Source: Promethearchaeota archaeon
Lineage (GTDB): Archaea > Asgardarchaeota > Lokiarchaeia > Sigyniarchaeales > SOKP01
Length of the DNA: 51,530 nucleotides
Direction of reading: 5' to 3'
Assembly (NCBI GenBank): GCA_048940645.1
Contig: JBHLOI010000022.1
Coordinates: 1-51,530 of the forward strand
Shown here: piece by piece, positions 32,020 through 50,900 of the stretch
How the letters are laid out: each line of letters opens with the position of its first letter
How positions within the stretch are numbered: position 1 is the stretch's first letter
The notes under the pieces: generated by a model
Database searches by the model: none
Seen by the model: only the letters and a program-made list of their open reading frames with translations
Told to the model about the DNA's origin: nothing
Position numbers and translations under genes: made by a program

Positions 32020-35000
32020 ATGTGGAAAAATAAAAAATTAAAAGAGTGCTTTATACTTTTACTGCTCTTATTTAGCCTTGTTGTAACAGCTATACCACCT
32101 TTAGTTAGCGCTGATGATCCAACCGTTGGCCCTTATGTAGCACCTGGTGCTCCAGATGGAATAACTATTGATCAACTTCTCAAGATTGGAATCCTACACG
32201 ATATGAATGACATAACGGGAGAGCATGCGTGGGACGGGTCTATGTTAGCTGCGAGAGAAATAAATGAAGCGGGAGGTCTTGTTATTGATAGTACTCAATA
32301 TTACATTGGATTAGTAACAGAGAATACTTTTGAGGCAGAACCTGAACTTGATATCGATAAAGGAATAGATGCTGCCAATTTAATGATCGCGGATTATGAT
32401 CCTCACATAATTACGGGAGGATTTAGGCTTGAAGCGTTAATCGAATACTTAGAACCAATAATGGATGCTCAAATTCCCTTTATTTGTACTGGTGCCGCTT
32501 CGAATATATTTAGTGAAAATGTTTTGAATAATTATGCTAGATATAAATATTTTTTCAGAACCATACTTAATGCCAGTAAAATTGGTGGAGATCTTTTCTA
32601 TTATATTCCTTATCTTGCAAATGAAATGACAGTTATTTCAGGTAAAGATATAACTAAAATTGCAATTTTACGTGAAGATTCAGAATGGACTGTTTCAATG
32701 GCAAATGTGCTGATTAATAATTTGCCTTTTTTTGGTTTAGAAGTTGTTGAAGACTTTGTTTTACCTTTGGACGCCTCAGAGCAAGATTTAAGAAATGTTT
32801 GGTATCAAATTGACATGTCAGGTGCCCAAATTGTAGTACCTTTGTCTACGAGTGGCCTGGGTATTTCAATAGGTCGCACGTATGGAGAAGTACAGCCAAG
32901 ATGTATTATGTGTGGGATTAATAGAGACGCTCAGTTAGGTAATTACTGGGATGATACTTATGGTAATGGTCAATATGAAATCACTATTCAAGGTACTTAT
33001 AGGACCGAAAAAACTCCAAAAACAATTCCATTTTGGGATAATTTTGTCGGTAATTATAGCATGGAACCTTATTATACTGCTGTAAGTTCATATGATGCTA
33101 TATATCTGTTGGCCAATGCGACCTTATCAACCCAATCTTTTAATGCAGATGATATTGTTTCTGGTTTAGAACAAATAGATAGCACTAACACTTATACAGG
33201 AGTGGAGGGGAATATCGCATTTACAGCGTCCCACGATTATCTTGGGGGTCCTGATTACAGTTCTATATTATTCTGTCAATGGCAAGATGGAGGGACTAAA
33301 GTTGTACTTCCATGTGGAAATATGTTTTATCCTGACTCCTTTGCGACTGGTTCTTTAGTAATACCAGAATGGGGTATTAATCCACGCGAGTTAATATGTG
33401 GCCTTAGTTATGCACCAGATAGTCTTGATCCACTTAATACTTGGGATAATACCATTTTTAATGTTATAGATCAATCTGTAGAAACTCTACTTGCGTATGA
33501 TTTGTCTGCCCCAGATTTAGAAATTATCCCAAGATTGGCTACAAATTTAGGAACGTGGTCGGTAGATAATTTGAATTATACAATTCCTTTAAAAACAGGA
33601 ATACTATTCCATGATGGGACTCCATTCGATGCTTATGCGGTTCAATGGAATTTTGATAGACTCGCATATTTCATGAATATAACAGGGATGTTACCTCCAG
33701 GGGAATCTACTACTATAGTTAAAACAATGTATCTTTTGGACGATGGGACTCCTATCATAAATAGTACAGAAGTTATTGATCCATATACTATTAAATTTGT
33801 GTTAAATAGACCTTATGGACCCTTTGATGCTTTACTCTGCTTCAGTGGCTCTGGAATGTTGTCACCTGCTTCAACTCCTGATACAGAGTATATAGATTTA
33901 GAAACTGGAGATGTAATTGGAACTGGACCGTTCGAATACGATTATTACATACCTGATGATAAGGTTAAATTCCATGCATTTGAGGATTATTGGGCTGGTG
34001 CCGCAGAAATTAAAGAATTAGTATTTAAAATAATATATGACACAGATGAGAGACATCAGGCATTACTCTCGGGAATAATAGATTTACTGAATGCTCCTTT
34101 AAATTATTATATTGATACTATGAGAGATGATCCAAATCTTAGTGTTATCGATGCAGGAGGAAATTTAATAATTAATTGGCTTGGAATGAATAATAAGCAA
34201 ATCAATATAACATGGAGAGAAGCAATCTCATATGCAATTGATTATAATTCCGTTATTGATGGACTTCTTAACGGACATGGGATTAGATTGAAATCACCGG
34301 TTCCTGAAGGAATTAGATATGCAAATTGGGCTTTTGATGTTGCAACGACAGATATAAAGCAAGCAAGAGAAATCATGCAAAGTATGGGTTTTGGTGTAGG
34401 TTGGGATTCTACGTTCCCTGGCAGTGATGAAGCTCAATGGACAGCGGCAAATTTCCGAACTTTAAATTATACATACAATCTTGGAAATTATTTCAGGGAA
34501 GGAATGTTTGACATCGTAACAGATAGCTTAGAGCTCATTGGAATTAGAGTAGAAGATGCTGGTTTGACATGGAACGAGTTTAAAGATCGAATTTTCAATC
34601 AAAGGGTTACTTCTGCTGGACATGATGCACTACAACTCTTTTGTTTGGGATGGATTCCCGATTTAAATGATCCAAGCACTTATATAAATTCATTATTCTC
34701 CAACATATCAGTATCTAATGCTGCTCAGGTAAACGATCCATATCTTCAAAATTTAATGGAGGAAGGTATAAAAGAAGTGGATCAAACGATTAGAGAAGCG
34801 ATTTACGACGAAATTCAACGATATTTAGTTGAAGAGCTCAAGCCTTGGGCATTTTTATCTGTTGGACGTAATTATGATGCGTACCGTAAAGAGATAGATG
34901 GGTATCAATCGAATCCCTGGGATAAAGTATGGTTTCACGGTGTAGAATTTCAGGATTTAGTACCACCTCATACATCAATTAATATAGTTGGTGATCAGAA

Positions 35001-38000
35001 TTCATATGGTTGGTTTGAATCTGATGTAATAATTACTCTTTCAGCTACTGATTATTTTTCTGGAGTTCAAACTACAGAATATAGCGTTGATGGAGAAACA
35101 TGGCTTACTTACACTGAACCAATTATCATTTCGGAAGATGGAATGACTCTCATCTATTATAGGTCAATCGATTACAACGGAAATATAGAAGAGACAAAAA
35201 TAGAAAAGATTTGTAAATATTCTTTCTTTTCGGCTCGTGATTTGATCTTTGGTACAAAGAATGGATTATCCGAACTGGAACCTCTCGATACTTGGGATTA
35301 CGAATCATGGGATGTTTTTGATCAAGTTCTCGAGGGCTTATTTGCTCATGATTTATCCCATCCAGAGATGGAACTAATTCCTAGACTTGCGGCCGAATTT
35401 GGTACCTGGTCTCCAGACGGTTTAACCTATACTGTTACATTAAGGACAGGGGTGACGTTCCATGATGGAACGCCATTTAATGCTGATGCAGTTCAATGGA
35501 ATTTTGATAGATTGGCATATTTCATGAATGTCTCAGGAACATTACCTCCAGACAAACAGGTAACCATGATTGAATCATTATACCGTTGGGACGATTGGAC
35601 TCCTATTATTCATCATACAGAGGTCGTTAATCCATATACTATTAGATTTGTATTAAACAGACCTTATGCGGCGTTAGAAGCGTTACTAGCATCAAGTGGA
35701 ACATATATACACTCTCCTTTCTCAACTCCTGAAATGGATTATATCGATACTTTTAGTGGTTCTCTTGTTGGTACGGGACCATATATATTTGATTTTCATA
35801 TACAGGATACTGTCACTAAATTTCATGCATTTATGGATTATTGGGGAGGTCCTCCAAATGTTAAGAGGCTAATTTTCTCAATTATCGAAGATGATCAAAG
35901 CAGAAATGACGCTCTTTTATCCGGTGAGGTTGATTTCATTCTTAATCCATTACCTTCAATGTACGATGCATTTGAAACAGATCCTAGCATTACTTTATAT
36001 GATGCTGGAAATACTGGTCTTATGATGTATATTGGAATGAATAACAGGCAGATTAATAAAACCATGAGGCAAGCGATATCATACGCAATAAATTATTCGC
36101 ATATTATTAATGAAATAATGGAAGGACAAGGAGTAAGATTGAAATCTCCCCTTCCAAAGGGCATTCCTTATGCAAATTGGTCGCTAAATGTAGCTCTTAT
36201 GAATATTACGAGGGCAAGAGAGATCCTTCTTGATGCTGGAGTTGTAATTGGGTTAGATCCTCTAGTTGATTCTGATTGGACGAATTTAATTGATTTTGGG
36301 ACTCCAATAGCATCATATAACTATTCTTATAATATAGGTAATTGGCGTAGAGAAGCTATATTGTATTTATTACAGGATAACTTAAGACAAATTGGAATTC
36401 AAGTTTTAGATGCGGGAATGACATGGCAGGATTATGTTTGGAGGTTGTTGGACATATACCCATATTCTCGAGACATGCTGCAATTATTTGAATTTGCCTG
36501 GTTGCCTGATTTTGGTGATCCAAGCAATTATTTAGATTCGAATCTATTAAGTGAATCACCAAGTAATTTTGCTCTAGTAAATGATCCATATCTCCAAGAT
36601 CTTTTAGCACAAGGAATAGTTGAGGTTGATCCTAATATGAGAAGGACAATTTACAACGAAATCCAACGGTATTTAGTTGAGGATTTAATGCCATGGGCAT
36701 TTACATTTTCGGGTCGTAACTTTTATGCTTATAATGATGAATTTACAGGATATGAACCCAATACAATGCAAAAGTTATGGTTCTTCAGCATTTCTAGAGT
36801 ACCACTCCCCAAATGTAATGAAACTGCGGAATGGGGTGTAAATCCTGGAGAACAGATAATCTGGGACGTTTCTGGATATTGGCTTGAAATGATGTCCTTC
36901 CTTCTTCACCAGGAAAGTCCAGCTCAATGGATGATGGATATACACGACGTCAGTTTAACATACTGGGAGGATCTGCCATTCAAAAATGTACCCTACGATT
37001 ATTATTCTACTATTTGGGCTACTATGTACAATCGCTCTGTCACAGAAGGGGCTCCATGGGAAGAAATGATGCCACTTTCTCCTCTGGTTTTCTATAATGC
37101 TTGTGAACAATTTATATATAATCAATTATTCGCCGCATATTACCAAAATTGGATTCATCTTCTAATACCTACACCTGTTAATCTAGAGATTCTCAATAAA
37201 ACAATTTTTGAACTATTTCAACTTTATAATATGGCTGCTGGTAGCACAATTGAAGATAATTCTCTTGAGATCATTCTTGATATTGGTACGGATTTACTTA
37301 CTATTAATTATACATATAATAATCAGGGAATTCTTACATACGGGACGCTAAAAAATTCCACAGGCCATCTCTGGTTAGAAATAAGAACGGATGTAACACC
37401 ACCAACTTGGATAGAAATCCCCACTGATCAATTTGTTGAGTTAGGGACCCGATTCTCTTATCAAGTATCGGCTTTCGATGAATCAGGTATCGATCATTAT
37501 TGGATCAGCGATACTGAAAACTTTGAAATTGATAATAATGGATTAATTGTTGATAAAGATTTCCTTGAGCTTGGTGTGTATGAGCTTGAGGTACGTGCTT
37601 ATGATCCATATGGTCACTATTGCTCTGCGACAATCTTAATTACTGTAACTGACAGTACTCCACCTTTTGGAATTGATAGTGTTTATGATACTATTCCTAA
37701 CATAACTATTCTAACTTATACTCGTACTCCACAAATTATAGGTACAGTAAAAGTATTCGATAATTCTCCAATAGCAAATGTTGAGCTTTGGAACGTAGAT
37801 CCCATCTACGATGAAAGCATTGATGAAGGATTTACTATTGTAACCACTCATCATCCTAAATCTCCGTTAGGTATTTATGATTATAGTTATACAAGTGATA
37901 TCGTAATTATGACCACTACTTCACTTAAAGAGGGTGAACACACTCTTAATCTTCGAGTTTATGATGCTCAAGGCAATGTTGCAAATAAATACTTTAACAT

Positions 38001-38517
38001 TACCGTATTTCGAGTATTGAGTCTAAAACTTAGTGGCGAATTTGATTATCTCGAAAAAGAAAAAGTAAAGATATCTATCGTTGCTAATTTGTTAGACGCG
38101 GAAACAAATATGGAAGTGAATTCATTATGGATTACTGATATGGGTGTAGTAGTGGATATAATAATATGGGACCCAGACGGTAATATAGTTCAATTACCGC
38201 TAGGTACTACCCAAATGACCTATATGTCTGGCGGCACGTTTCAATGGGAAGCTCACGGCACTATAAGTGATTTAAAAGACCTATTTAAGAAAGGTGTCTA
38301 TATGGTTAGTGCCGATGTTAAATTTTACGGAAATGATGATCCTTATTATTATCATTATCTTGTTAATGAAGATGTGATTCAATTCCACGTAGATCCACCA
38401 GTTGATGAAGATATTAATCTTTGGATTCCCTTGATTTTAGTGGGCTTTGCGGGATTTATACTTTTAAATTTGGCTCTTACCTTCTTTTATAAGAGGAAAC
38501 ATCGGCGAATTGTATGA
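32020..38517 (+). CDS. Giant multi-domain surface protein: LivJ-type SBP + two family-5 SBPs + Ig-like domains + C-terminal TM anchor
   Basis: Signal peptide; KIGILH...AAREINEAGG (type I SBP); two FHDGTPF/GTGP/AISYAI modules (~33385-34950 and ~35236-36795); D..PP-initiated Ig-like domains; TM followed by KRKHRR. Confidence 0.9.
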   Translation: MWKNKKLKECFILLLLLFSLVVTAIPPLVSADDPTVGPYVAPGAPDGITIDQLLKIGILHDMNDITGEHAWDGSMLAAREINEAGGLVIDSTQYYIGLVTENTFEAEPELDIDKGIDAANLMIADYDPHIITGGFRLEALIEYLEPIMDAQIPFICTGAASNIFSENVLNNYARYKYFFRTILNASKIGGDLFYYIPYLANEMTVISGKDITKIAILREDSEWTVSMANVLINNLPFFGLEVVEDFVLPLDASEQDLRNVWYQIDMSGAQIVVPLSTSGLGISIGRTYGEVQPRCIMCGINRDAQLGNYWDDTYGNGQYEITIQGTYRTEKTPKTIPFWDNFVGNYSMEPYYTAVSSYDAIYLLANATLSTQSFNADDIVSGLEQIDSTNTYTGVEGNIAFTASHDYLGGPDYSSILFCQWQDGGTKVVLPCGNMFYPDSFATGSLVIPEWGINPRELICGLSYAPDSLDPLNTWDNTIFNVIDQSVETLLAYDLSAPDLEIIPRLATNLGTWSVDNLNYTIPLKTGILFHDGTPFDAYAVQWNFDRLAYFMNITGMLPPGESTTIVKTMYLLDDGTPIINSTEVIDPYTIKFVLNRPYGPFDALLCFSGSGMLSPASTPDTEYIDLETGDVIGTGPFEYDYYIPDDKVKFHAFEDYWAGAAEIKELVFKIIYDTDERHQALLSGIIDLLNAPLNYYIDTMRDDPNLSVIDAGGNLIINWLGMNNKQINITWREAISYAIDYNSVIDGLLNGHGIRLKSPVPEGIRYANWAFDVATTDIKQAREIMQSMGFGVGWDSTFPGSDEAQWTAANFRTLNYTYNLGNYFREGMFDIVTDSLELIGIRVEDAGLTWNEFKDRIFNQRVTSAGHDALQLFCLGWIPDLNDPSTYINSLFSNISVSNAAQVNDPYLQNLMEEGIKEVDQTIREAIYDEIQRYLVEELKPWAFLSVGRNYDAYRKEIDGYQSNPWDKVWFHGVEFQDLVPPHTSINIVGDQNSYGWFESDVIITLSATDYFSGVQTTEYSVDGETWLTYTEPIIISEDGMTLIYYRSIDYNGNIEETKIEKICKYSFFSARDLIFGTKNGLSELEPLDTWDYESWDVFDQVLEGLFAHDLSHPEMELIPRLAAEFGTWSPDGLTYTVTLRTGVTFHDGTPFNADAVQWNFDRLAYFMNVSGTLPPDKQVTMIESLYRWDDWTPIIHHTEVVNPYTIRFVLNRPYAALEALLASSGTYIHSPFSTPEMDYIDTFSGSLVGTGPYIFDFHIQDTVTKFHAFMDYWGGPPNVKRLIFSIIEDDQSRNDALLSGEVDFILNPLPSMYDAFETDPSITLYDAGNTGLMMYIGMNNRQINKTMRQAISYAINYSHIINEIMEGQGVRLKSPLPKGIPYANWSLNVALMNITRAREILLDAGVVIGLDPLVDSDWTNLIDFGTPIASYNYSYNIGNWRREAILYLLQDNLRQIGIQVLDAGMTWQDYVWRLLDIYPYSRDMLQLFEFAWLPDFGDPSNYLDSNLLSESPSNFALVNDPYLQDLLAQGIVEVDPNMRRTIYNEIQRYLVEDLMPWAFTFSGRNFYAYNDEFTGYEPNTMQKLWFFSISRVPLPKCNETAEWGVNPGEQIIWDVSGYWLEMMSFLLHQESPAQWMMDIHDVSLTYWEDLPFKNVPYDYYSTIWATMYNRSVTEGAPWEEMMPLSPLVFYNACEQFIYNQLFAAYYQNWIHLLIPTPVNLEILNKTIFELFQLYNMAAGSTIEDNSLEIILDIGTDLLTINYTYNNQGILTYGTLKNSTGHLWLEIRTDVTPPTWIEIPTDQFVELGTRFSYQVSAFDESGIDHYWISDTENFEIDNNGLIVDKDFLELGVYELEVRAYDPYGHYCSATILITVTDSTPPFGIDSVYDTIPNITILTYTRTPQIIGTVKVFDNSPIANVELWNVDPIYDESIDEGFTIVTTHHPKSPLGIYDYSYTSDIVIMTTTSLKEGEHTLNLRVYDAQGNVANKYFNITVFRVLSLKLSGEFDYLEKEKVKISIVANLLDAETNMEVNSLWITDMGVVVDIIIWDPDGNIVQLPLGTTQMTYMSGGTFQWEAHGTISDLKDLFKKGVYMVSADVKFYGNDDPYYYHYLVNEDVIQFHVDPPVDEDINLWIPLILVGFAGFILLNLALTFFYKRKHRRIV

Positions 38518-38673: not shown

Positions 38674-38761
38674 AGGGGTATGAAATAGGTGAAAAAATTA
38701 ATATCTACTAGTGCCTTGCTGGGATGCTGGTAGCATTTTTACAGGTATTTCATATATCCCT
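38674..38761 (+). ncRNA. Candidate structured small RNA (88-nt long imperfect hairpin)
   Basis: AGGGG/TCCCT, TATGAAATA/TATTTCATA, TGAAAAA/TTTTTACA and CTACTAGTGCCT/GGGATGCTGGTAG pair; AAAG-C-TTTATA promoter about 27 nt upstream. Confidence 0.45.
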
Positions 38762-38918: not shown

Positions 38919-41117
38919 TTAAGCACTTACTTCAATGTTCATTAATTCTTCTGCATCAATAACCTTTTTATAAAGTTTATCTAAGAATCCATCAAAATTG
39001 TTTTTAGTATATTTAATTTTTAACATCTCATTCAGTAAATGTGGTATATTATCTTCATTCTCATAGATTGATATGATATTTATCTTACTTTCCTCATTTA
39101 ATTGAAATATAGTATTCCATTCCTCCTTCAACCGTTTAGAGTTAAGAGAATTTTCTGAAAAAAATAAAATATATATTTTACTTTCATTCATAAAACCTTG
39201 GGTATCGCTAATTATACCTCCACTATTATCAATGTTCCAGAAAAATACTTTATTTATTCTAGGATAAGCTTCCAAATGATTAACAATTTCGGGGATTTGG
39301 TAATATTCCGTATCTACCGCGTCGTAGCTTAGGTAGATGTTAAAACTGTCAGAAAAAAACTTCAGAATGTCATATAAGTTGAAATAATAAGTGTACAAAT
39401 CATCTGGTGTCTCAACTTTTCTTTTGAGATAAGCTTTAAATGTTGTTAAGTTATCAAGCTTTTTTCCAAGATCCTCTTTGTTATTAAACACGTTTGAAAA
39501 AATTTTTTGCCAATTATCATCTTTAGAGATGATTGAAAAGTAATGATTAAGTTCTAATGCTTCTTTAAATTGTGATTTGAATTGAGAGGCTTCTACTTGT
39601 ATAGTCTCAATTTTATTTTCAATATAAAATCGAATATCATTCGGTAAGCCAATTTCCCACCAATCATCCTTATAATATTCTTCAAGTTTTTCTATAAGAA
39701 AATCACTCAGATCCTCTTTAAATTTTTTTAAATCTTTTTTTGCTCTAGACACTTGCCTTGTTATATATTTTATTCTATTTTTCTGATCTTTATCTATGCG
39801 TATATTTTGAACAATTGGCAAATTTCGTAATGATTTTGGAAGTATTCTTAATTTATTTCCTTTCAAATCAACTTCTTGCAGTAACTTGAGTTTATCCATA
39901 GATTTTGGAAGAGATATTAATTGATTTCTCTTTAAGCATAATGATTCTAAAGCTTTTAAGTCACAAATTGATTCTGGGAGAGTTGCTAAATAATTATGAT
40001 CTAAATATAAAAATTTTAGAGAATGAAGATTACCGATTGATTCTGGAAGATATGTTAATTTATTCGACGTTAGATCCAATTCTTTCAGTAAGACAAGGTT
40101 GTCTATTGATTCTGGAAGAAATGTTAAATAATTAGAACCTAAACACAGAACTTCCAGAGATTTTAGGTATTGAATTGACACAGGTATAACATTTAATTGA
40201 TTATTATCTAAATATAAATATTTAAGAGCTGATAAATTCCCTATTGATTCAGGTATCAAATAAAGCTGATTATATCTTAGATCTATTTCTTCTAGCGAAG
40301 TAAGGTTGCCTATTGAATCTGGAAGTAAAGATAAAGAATTATGTCTCAAATCCAGTTTTTGAAGCGATTTAAGGTTTTCTATTGATTTTGGCAATTCTTT
40401 CAATTGATTTTTTAATAAACAGAGATCTTGAAGCGAGGAAAGATAGCATATTGATTCTGGAAAGATTGACAGTTGATTATAACTTAAATTTAGTTTTTGA
40501 AGAAATGAGAGAAATTCTAAAGATTTTGGGAGCGTTTCTAATCCATTATTAATTAAAGAAAGTTCTTTTAGTAATGATAATTCTCCAATAGAATCGGGTA
40601 AACTAGTCAAATTATTACCATCTAAAATTAATTTTTGAAGTAATTTTAATTTCATTATAGAATCGGGAAGACCAATTAGTTCATTACTCGTTAAATCTAA
40701 CTCTTTTAATTTCTTAATCCTTGTTAGTGCTTCAGGAAAAACATATAACTTATTTCCCTTCAAAATTAGTCTTTGAAGCGACTTAAGCTTAGACATTGAT
40801 TCTGGAAGGATTCTTAAACTATTATTTTCTAAATCTAAAGTTTGAAGCACCTTAAGGTTTCCTATTGATTCTGGAAGAGTTGTCAGTTCATTTCCCACTA
40901 GAAATAGTTCTTTAAGAGATTTAAGACAAGTTATACAATCAGGAAAAGTAGATAAGCTATTAAAAAGTCCTAATCCGATTATATTATCACCATGGAGCAC
41001 AAATCCTAAAGAGTTTCGTTTAAGCCGATCAATTTGCGGAATAGGTTTACCAATTATATTTTCTAATTCATATAGAACTTTCCAGTCCCCACTTTTTAAA
41101 ATTTTTACCTCATTCAT
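38919..41117 (-). CDS. Cytoplasmic LRR - Swt1/HEPN-like - TIR domain protein
   Basis: 16 complete 23-aa LRRs (aa 66-433); LSDFL..KL..YY.DDWW..GLP..I / NW..IF..VF (Swt1-like HEPN); TIR box [20 protein letters not shown]. Confidence 0.85.
39819..40922 (-). repeat. Coding tandem repeat: 16 x 69-bp leucine-rich repeat units
   Basis: Consensus LxxLxLxxNxLxxLPxSIxxL; recurring gattctgga/attgattc on the plus strand. Confidence 0.92.
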
Positions 41118-41169
41118 AAAAAGTAACTTTAGATTTCTCTTTCCCTGTATATGTTTATTTATTTCAATC

Positions 41170-41217
41170 TTTTATATATGTTTTATTAATTTCAAAAATG
41201 AGTGAATTTTTGAAATT
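41170..41217 (-). promoter_or_regulatory. Promoter of the LRR-TIR gene with a perfect 12-bp inverted repeat just upstream of BRE/TATA
   Basis: AATTTCAAAAAT-gagtga-ATTTTTGAAATT at 41188-41217; minus-strand ATATATAAAA at 41179-41170. Confidence 0.5.
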
Positions 41218-50291: not shown

Positions 50292-50900
50292 TTATTTCTC
50301 AGAAAATTTCAACGTTGTATGAACTCCAAAATATACCTTAGTAATCACGTCAAGAACTAAGTATATTAGGGCAGTCCAGAAAGAATTCAAAACCATAAAT
50401 GCCGCAGGAGATAATATCCAGACTAATGGAAATCCAGACCAAAATATAACTACGAAAACAAAGATAAATTTCTGTTCAGCACGATTTTTACCGATATGAT
50501 ATAGTACATATATATATGCCAGAGAGCTCAGTGTGAAAAAGAGCCATTTCACAGGAATTTCCGTAATGCTTGCAAATAATCCAGTAACCATAACTGTTGA
50601 ATTAAACACTATGATTTCCAGTGTTGTTTTAGTATCTATGCTCAGAATCTTTGAAATCTCAAACATCAAGAATGAACAACTCACCGCATAGAATGCCCAT
50701 CTTGTCCAGTATATTAAATCCCCACTTAATGCAGTGATTACACCTAATTCACTCACCATTAGAATATAAGAAGCAATTGTTATGAAATTCACAATCATAT
50801 TGAGTGAAGCTATTTCATGGTTCTTTTTCTTTAATATAAGGAACATCAATGAGGTAAAAGAAAATAACCCTATACCTATGTAAAAAATAATTTCCTCCAT
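50292..50900 (-). CDS. Schizorhodopsin (Asgard light-driven inward H+ pump family)
   Basis: 202 aa, 7 TM; helix C R67-W68-F70-S74-C75-E81 (FSE motif); WSGFP in helix F; D184 and Schiff-base K188 (DVITK). Confidence 0.93.
   Translation of the reverse strand: MEEIIFYIGIGLFSFTSLMFLILKKKNHEIASLNMIVNFITIASYILMVSELGVITALSGDLIYWTRWAFYAVSCSFLMFEISKILSIDTKTTLEIIVFNSTVMVTGLFASITEIPVKWLFFTLSSLAYIYVLYHIGKNRAEQKFIFVFVVIFWSGFPLVWILSPAAFMVLNSFWTALIYLVLDVITKVYFGVHTTLKFSEK

Follow-up and report, generated by a model that had tools for sequence, protein, structure and literature searches.

A soluble LRR-HEPN-TIR protein in Lokiarchaeia, a probable domain-shuffled offshoot of a membrane TIR receptor family

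Architecture of the gene and its surroundings

We analysed a window comprising the whole 51,530-nucleotide stretch of a Lokiarchaeial contig (JBHLOI010000022.1, assembly GCA_048940645.1), and identified on its minus strand a single intact open reading frame of 732 amino acids (positions 38919-41117). Its parts, delimited by the reading frame, Pfam and comparison with orthologues, are an N-terminal cap, 16 leucine-rich repeats (LRRs), a basic helix, a Swt1-like HEPN domain predicted to be catalytically dead, and a TIR domain; all coordinates given for them refer to the minus strand. The cap (aa 1-67, 40917-41117) is common to other LRR proteins of the source genome, encoded on contigs C1 and C46. 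The LRR array (aa 68-435, 39813-40916) was identified both by Pfam (LRR_8, E 2e-56) and by its repeat pattern, with 16 repeats at an exact spacing of 23 residues (15 found by regular expression and a sixteenth with valine), the number proposed in a first-pass annotation of this DNA. A Pfam match to RsmF was rejected as a cross-match from the LRRs, and a PHROGs search with the protein returned no match. Within NCBIfam the only matches were to generic LRR families, far under their cut-offs, indicating that the protein does not belong to a secreted effector family.

The peak 19-residue hydropathy of the whole protein is 1.27, unfit for a membrane, and we could not find a signal peptide or a single transmembrane (TM) segment between the LRRs and the TIR of the 732-aa protein. 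A motif search of the same sequence detected no Walker A, and Pfam gave no match to NB-ARC, NACHT or Roc-COR, other domains accounting for the whole chain, in agreement with the earlier claim that such domains and a TM segment are lacking. The segment between the LRRs and the HEPN (aa 436-461, 39735-39812), which continues into the first HEPN helix, had been called a basic helical linker; it is basic, but by alignment its homologue in the membrane relatives described below is the positive segment immediately inside the TM helix.

The neighbouring genes, mscL, an AAA ATPase, a solute-binding protein and a thiolase, are metabolic or housekeeping. Positions 32020-38517 encode a surface protein of 2165 aa that combines several solute-binding domains with a TM segment at its C-terminus; this protein adjoins the hairpin described below in the source genome, at locus L004 and in genome G143, and is absent from the site at loci L002, L003 and L005. 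A 202-aa protein encoded at 50292-50900 (with the motifs DLIYWTRW and YLVLDVITK) resembles a microbial rhodopsin by eye and may be one. The region upstream of the LRR-HEPN-TIR gene (41120-41180) is conserved in orthologues and contains a TATA-like box and two short direct repeats (AAACATATA), which could be an operator. A scan for sigma-70 promoters, using a model unsuited to archaea, gave matches at chance level.

The HEPN domain lacks the RNase motif

The middle domain (aa 462-590, 39348-39734) was assigned from Pfam, alignment and a structural model. Pfam HEPN_Swt1 matched it weakly (E 9e-4, below cut-off), and matched the relatives P0135 and P0140 above cut-off. The isolated domain was modelled at pLDDT 84 and compared with 48,161 chains using VIA-align, which ranked the HEPN of AbiF first (Z 8.6, rmsd 3.5, 143 residues aligned) and the C-terminal domain of yeast Swt1 second (Z 7.5, rmsd 2.6, 104 residues aligned), followed by rows containing other HEPNs; these Z values are modest for helical bundles, and an independent match was obtained to Swt1-HEPN clusters of the Atlas (TM 0.77-0.80). 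The first-pass annotation had expected a Foldseek search to return a Swt1-type HEPN. Foldseek against the PDB found no match (best E 1.0), while the VIA-align and Atlas comparisons and the Pfam matches of the relatives bear out the assignment itself.

The sequence KAYLKR (K561-R566, 39420-39437), previously read as a degenerate RxxxxH motif, aligns without gaps to the intact RNxxYH of two close relatives, confirming that reading. By alignment, the domain lacks the Rx4-6H of active HEPN RNases. All 33 TIR-fused rows, which represent 30 distinct proteins, lack the motif, with no histidine at its position in any of them, and it is intact in 13 of 15 unfused relatives. The fold is that of the Swt1-like HEPNs (PF18731), a family with both active and dead members in the portions consulted of Anantharaman et al. 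2013 (PMC3710099), where inactive Swt1-like HEPNs, the dead one being that of eukaryotic Swt1, are proposed to bind RNA; unlike the present protein, none of the Swt1-like architectures in the consulted portions of its table is a fusion to TIR or LRR.

We consider the dead HEPN more likely to be a structural coupler than a sensor of RNA, since it is net acidic (19 K/R versus 26 D/E) and since its slot is filled in other members of the TIR family by PCI or zinc-ribbon domains, as in the LRR-PCI-TIR proteins P0041, P0088 and P0105. HEPN domains are generally known to dimerise, and this general knowledge is the sole basis for suggesting a dimer role here. The gene for P0140, the nearest active HEPN (RNxxYH intact), stands back to back with one for a TIR-LRR protein, at a distance of 46 nt (L008:1614-4497); this pair lies upstream of Band 7 and TPR genes in two of three loci.

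The TIR domain is conserved in fold and diverged in sequence

The C-terminal domain (aa 591-722, 38952-39347) is, by Pfam, structural match and tree, a diverged member of a Lokiarchaeial TIR family. It matches Pfam TIR_2 over the curated cut-off (E 4e-8), and its model resembles the RPS4/RRS1 TIR (Z 15.5, rmsd 2.4 over 131 residues), Cat1 (Z 14.9) and MyD88 (Z 14.0). A phmmer search of the TIR against PDB sequences returned no match; by profile, the nearest solved sequences are Cat1 and AtTIR, and the family profile aligns E666 with the glutamate of the SxWCxxE helix (Cat1 and AtTIR). The earlier assignment of a TIR domain that keeps the glutamate E666 is thus upheld. This glutamate is retained in 155 of 159 family TIRs, and S597-Y598, D602, S660, E666 and W667 are invariant across both branches of LRR-form proteins, the clade of the source genome and a metagenome sister branch.

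Elsewhere the domain has changed. It retains 23 of 34 family-conserved columns, compared with a family median of 32. In the stretch from R662 to E666 (39120-39134), the family alignment places R662 four residues before the glutamate, at the position of the tryptophan of WxxxE, where 138 of 159 family TIRs have alanine or serine. The region of the BB loop (aa 626-645, 39183-39242) is 17% identical to that of the membrane relatives, which are themselves 66% identical to one another; the family BB-loop motif is absent, and its replacement, a loop modelled with low confidence, is conserved within the LRR clade. In 105 of 105 pairs of TM-form proteins, identity is higher in the TIR than in the HEPN (64% versus 40%), whereas between the LRR branches it is lower in the TIR (45% versus 50%). 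The BB loop is 15% identical between these branches, and 65% or more in TM pairs whose HEPNs are similarly distant. This reversal in the order of identity suggests that the TIR was freed from family constraint after the swap of its sensor, with the BB loop diverging most.

The glutamate had been taken to point to NADase activity. However, it occurs in over 70% of all TIRs, including the non-enzymatic TLR1/2/6/10 (PMC7075850), and the BB-loop motif has been lost here, so that the step from glutamate to NADase does not hold. We put NADase activity at somewhat short of an even chance. Every TIR known to make cyclic ADP-ribose has an aromatic residue at E-4 (10.1101/2022.05.07.491051), and a cyclic ADP-ribose signal is therefore unlikely in the present protein, with arginine at this position.

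The HEPN-TIR tail is shared with membrane receptors

A full-library search with the HEPN-TIR tandem returned 468 proteins, most of them related through the TIR alone. We identified the whole tandem in 19 other 50%-clusters, at 33-46% identity and E values of 1e-42 to 1e-74. Among the matches listed, 21 proteins carry the whole tandem: 14 have a detected TM segment directly ahead of it and one a TM segment recognised by eye, and the remainder are two fragments and four LRR forms. Behind a signal peptide, the heads of the membrane relatives are beta-helices, FG-GAP propellers or PPC domains, so that these proteins, as read from their sequences, are mostly single-pass surface receptors composed of signal peptide, swappable ectodomain, TM segment, dead HEPN and TIR. 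The TIR family as a whole is found in 104 of 161 genomes of the class, with up to 15 matches in each, and is headed in the majority by an ectodomain and TM segment, and otherwise also by Ras-like GTPases, caspase-like domains, LRR-PCI or tandem TIRs.

In a tree of the HEPN domains rooted on active HEPNs, the dead HEPNs form one clade (99/98) within which the LRR forms are themselves a clade (100/99) that groups with three TM proteins (98/96). The direction from TM form to LRR form is likely, and not proven, since an AU test does not reject monophyly of the TM forms (p 0.076); the branch of the LRR forms is long. The first-pass annotation had the HEPN replacing a TM segment or nucleotide-binding domain. 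This does not agree with the presence of a TM segment directly before the same dead HEPN in 14 of 21 tandem proteins, among which the LRR clade is nested; going by this comparison, it is the LRR array that took the place of ectodomain and TM segment. The Toll-like order also claimed for the protein stands as far as the LRRs come first and the TIR last, and is attributable to convergent shuffling that recurred several times in the TIR family, with six changes for six LRR-TIR rows in a TIR tree made by a quick method from Lokiarchaeial-type TIRs only.

The source genome encodes 12 LRR proteins and at least five TIR proteins, including a second, independent LRR-TIR protein on contig C46 (L069:6037-10863), 449 aa long and without a HEPN, directly preceded by a gene for a 1147-aa CHAT (caspase-like) protein. 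Two membrane TIR receptors are encoded on contig C92 (L068:4299-16146). The first of these precedes a 575-aa protein that ends in a Nudix domain and might consume ADP-ribose in this genome. Genome G136, of the same genus, has two long HEPN-TIR genes broken over different reading frames within the HEPN (C95:3309-4126 and C29:29690-30489; loci L050, L063, L066 and L067), which may reflect decay of the membrane form after loss of the reader gene described below, not found in that genome, or an assembly error.

A predicted SLOG reader accompanies membrane forms

Near TM forms we identified a gene encoding a RelA/SpoT-like-TPR-SLOG protein, which could be a reader of the TIR product. In genome G095 (contig C34; L089:9663 to L090:13137), an array of membrane TIR receptors, one with a dead HEPN, ends in this gene, and similar pairings occur in G027 and G085. 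All six genomes that have an intact TM form also have the reader, which we did not find in any of the six that have the LRR form; this absence is not specific, because the latter six are closely related and the reader occurs in just 6 of 41 members of the genus. It was not found in the source genome, which is 90% complete.

We additionally considered as a partner a conserved 526-aa coiled-coil protein of no Pfam family, whose gene follows a short-chain dehydrogenase (source genome contig C27:10737-12317; L095:13845-15425). It lies after TM forms at four loci, and we rejected it as a partner and regard it as a syntenic anchor, since the same dehydrogenase precedes it in the source genome with no receptor present. 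Several relatives carry insertions of membrane TIR receptors between these two genes, where the source genome has none.

Distribution, selection and the question of antiviral function

Homologues occur at 86-89% identity, and four orthologues, intact and of equal length, occur in the same genus. We identified the gene in six genomes, comprising all six members of a clade in which the neighbouring thiolase is at least 91% identical, and did not find it in the other 36 genomes of the genus. An orthologue from metagenomes, 56% identical, represents the sister branch and occupies the same site between mscL and thiolase. The soluble LRR form is thus restricted to one clade and its sister branch at a single site. 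What occupies the position next to the thiolase varies among relatives and includes a further TIR gene.

Across five orthologues dN/dS is 0.21 (0.18-0.28 by part), and 0.19 at the concave positions of the LRRs, whose residues are kept in register between branches (57% versus 18% off-register). The low dN/dS of the concave face and the retention of register point, at the level of sequence, to purifying selection without diversification of the LRRs, and to a stable ligand rather than an arms race; a conserved viral or damage signal is a possible ligand of this kind.

Identity between the branches is highest in the LRRs (64%) and lowest in the TIR (45%), with p 0.00015. Taken with the loss of family-conserved TIR columns, this could suggest that the LRRs are the working part of the protein, in binding or scaffolding a housekeeping partner, and that the HEPN-TIR tail is an inherited, folded and largely inert passenger. 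We regard this as quite improbable: purifying selection within the clade acts on the TIR as it does on the LRRs (dN/dS 0.22 versus 0.18), no frameshift or truncation was seen in any LRR-form copy, and E666 is retained in both branches.

A further explanation, which is the proposal of the first-pass annotation minus the replacement of a TM segment, is that the protein would be a self-contained antiviral sensor and effector, in which the LRRs detect a conserved viral or damage signal and the resulting clustering lets the TIR deplete NAD+, leading to dormancy or death in the manner of the TIRs of SARM1, Cat1 or SPARTA. The invariance of the SY pair, D602, S660, E666 and W667 in both branches, the near-universal retention of the glutamate in the family, and the closeness of Cat1 and AtTIR by profile would suit such an enzyme. 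A direct effector would also need no reader gene, and none was found; the slot beside the thiolase is variable in relatives, and Swt1-like HEPNs are traced to conflict systems in the portions consulted of PMC3710099. Against this, inspection of the open reading frames revealed no defence genes in the window, and PADLOC gave one weak match (E 0.004). The gene is present in every member of its clade rather than patchily, the concave face evolves slowly, and the BB loop, which AbTir requires intact for activity (10.1101/2022.05.07.491051), is remodelled. We therefore consider the antiviral sensor-effector rather unlikely. The context of the gene, with housekeeping neighbours, fixation in the clade and no fast change on the LRR face, similarly lends no support to the innate-immune sensor proposed in the first-pass annotation.

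A conserved hairpin adjoins the gene

We identified a conserved hairpin of about 85 nt, 160 nt past the stop codon (38675-38760), from its conservation and folding (z -2.95); its strand is unsettled, with G-U pairs favouring the plus strand. In an alignment of few and related sequences, 97% of its cells are paired and four pairs have changed on both sides. In each of the six genomes, and in the sister branch too, the hairpin is next to the gene, even though the gene on its far side differs; it is found in 7 of 135 family genomes, as a single copy with TATA-like boxes on both sides (L071-L076; L102:4225-4352). Rfam contained no credible match. We rejected the possibility that it is a mere terminator between converging genes, as it lies between diverging genes in genome G142. 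It is probably, judging by these features, a lineage-specific non-coding RNA.

The association raises the possibility of an AbiF-like module, in which the dead HEPN would bind the hairpin RNA in cis and hold the TIR off until the RNA is lost. The persistence of the hairpin at the gene, its narrow distribution and its paired changes could all be read in this way, and AbiF, which acts with its RNA (PMC12737573), is the top structural match to the HEPN. AbiF is, however, an active RNase with an RNA antitoxin, and the HEPN here is dead and net acidic. Furthermore, G142 (95% complete) carries the hairpin at another site and does not have the gene, the hairpin is absent from all TM forms with the same dead HEPN, and the co-occurrence amounts to one clade and one sister branch, for which synteny alone suffices. 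We thus consider RNA gating highly improbable.

Relation to known TIR and HEPN systems

The protein lies outside the TLR, NLR, Roco, Thoeris and AbiF families. It shares with animal Toll-like receptors the placement of the LRRs first and the TIR last, and its membrane relatives have type I receptor topology; in contrast to these receptors it has no signal peptide or TM segment, its 23-aa LRRs are cytoplasmic, a HEPN stands between LRR and TIR, and its TM relatives bear beta-helix, propeller or PPC heads instead of LRRs. Like plant TIR-NLRs and bacterial NLR/Avs proteins, it combines in a soluble chain a repeat-based sensor and a TIR that has the glutamate at the catalytic position, the best fold match being RPS4/RRS1, but it has no STAND NTPase, the reverse domain order, no WxxxE and an LRR face that is not diversifying.

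By analogy, the protein may work as a one-chain sensor-coupler-TIR protein, following the logic of SARM1 or a TNL. SARM1 (ARM-SAM-TIR), Cat1 (TIR-CARF) and the TIR-APAZ of SPARTA likewise combine a sensor, a helical oligomerisation part and a TIR in one chain (TIR Z 12.8-14.9). They differ in their sensor and middle domains and in keeping the tryptophan of WxxxE (Cat1 in our alignment), where R662 is found here. NADase activity has been shown for the TIRs of SARM1, Cat1 and SPARTA; they are NADases by demonstration, whereas the present TIR is known from its sequence and model. Thoeris, consisting of the TIR protein ThsB and a ThsA-type SLOG/Macro effector, resembles the membrane relatives in that these lie near the RelA/SpoT-like-TPR-SLOG gene, a possible reader of the TIR product. 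The gene studied here differs from it in having no linked SLOG-, Macro- or TPR-type effector, no reader found in the genome and no aromatic residue at E-4.

Within the Lokiarchaeial family of dead-HEPN-TIR receptors, the C-terminal tandem is present in the protein, and LRRs stand in place of the missing ectodomain and TM segment, making it a soluble variant. We found no description of an LRR-HEPN-TIR architecture, of a dead-HEPN-TIR family or of the wider Lokiarchaeial TIR family with its exchangeable heads in the literature covered, which lay mostly outside subscription journals, nor any mention of LRR-HEPN-TIR in the reviews and surveys of Asgard defence, in keeping with the earlier view that the architecture is undescribed.

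Discussion

It is highly likely that the protein originated, and has its present anatomy, as a soluble, domain-shuffled offshoot of the Lokiarchaeial TIR receptor family. The sequence comparisons show that an ancestral Swt1-like HEPN lost its RNase motif once, upon fusion to a Lokiarchaeial TIR, and that the resulting tail forms the cytoplasmic end of receptors that cross the membrane once. Most likely, LRRs drawn from the large LRR pool of the genome then displaced ectodomain and TM segment in one branch, after which the TIR diverged, chiefly in the BB loop.

As to function, we lean towards regulated TIR signalling in the cytoplasm, not necessarily antiviral, as a reading that is a little better than an even bet. 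The LRRs would bind a stable cytoplasmic ligand, probably a protein, and the dead HEPN may be a helical spacer or dimerisation unit that relays clustering to the TIR, whose output would no longer pass through the SLOG reader of the family. That output could be the conversion of NAD+ to non-cyclic ADP-ribose, on which we would not quite wager, and otherwise the scaffolding of TIR-TIR contacts or the damping of the other TIR proteins of the genome. An antiviral role for the protein is possible, if on the unlikely side. We consider it improbable that it is a self-contained Asgard immune receptor whose dead, domesticated HEPN links sensing by the LRRs, perhaps under AbiF-like gating by the hairpin, to NAD+ breakdown by the TIR. 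Were this so, a single signalling tail would serve Asgard archaea for Toll-like receptors at the surface and in the cytoplasm alike.

The family illustrates clearly how a nuclease domain can die upon fusion, and the protein, being small and soluble, is easy to test. Taken alone it is a narrow and diverged offshoot, and the membrane forms with their reader gene offer a better handle on the pathway. Lokiarchaeia are close prokaryotic relatives of eukaryotes, and the use of one tail both in surface receptors and in a cytoplasmic LRR protein would parallel the division between TLRs and NLRs, reached through independent domain shuffling.
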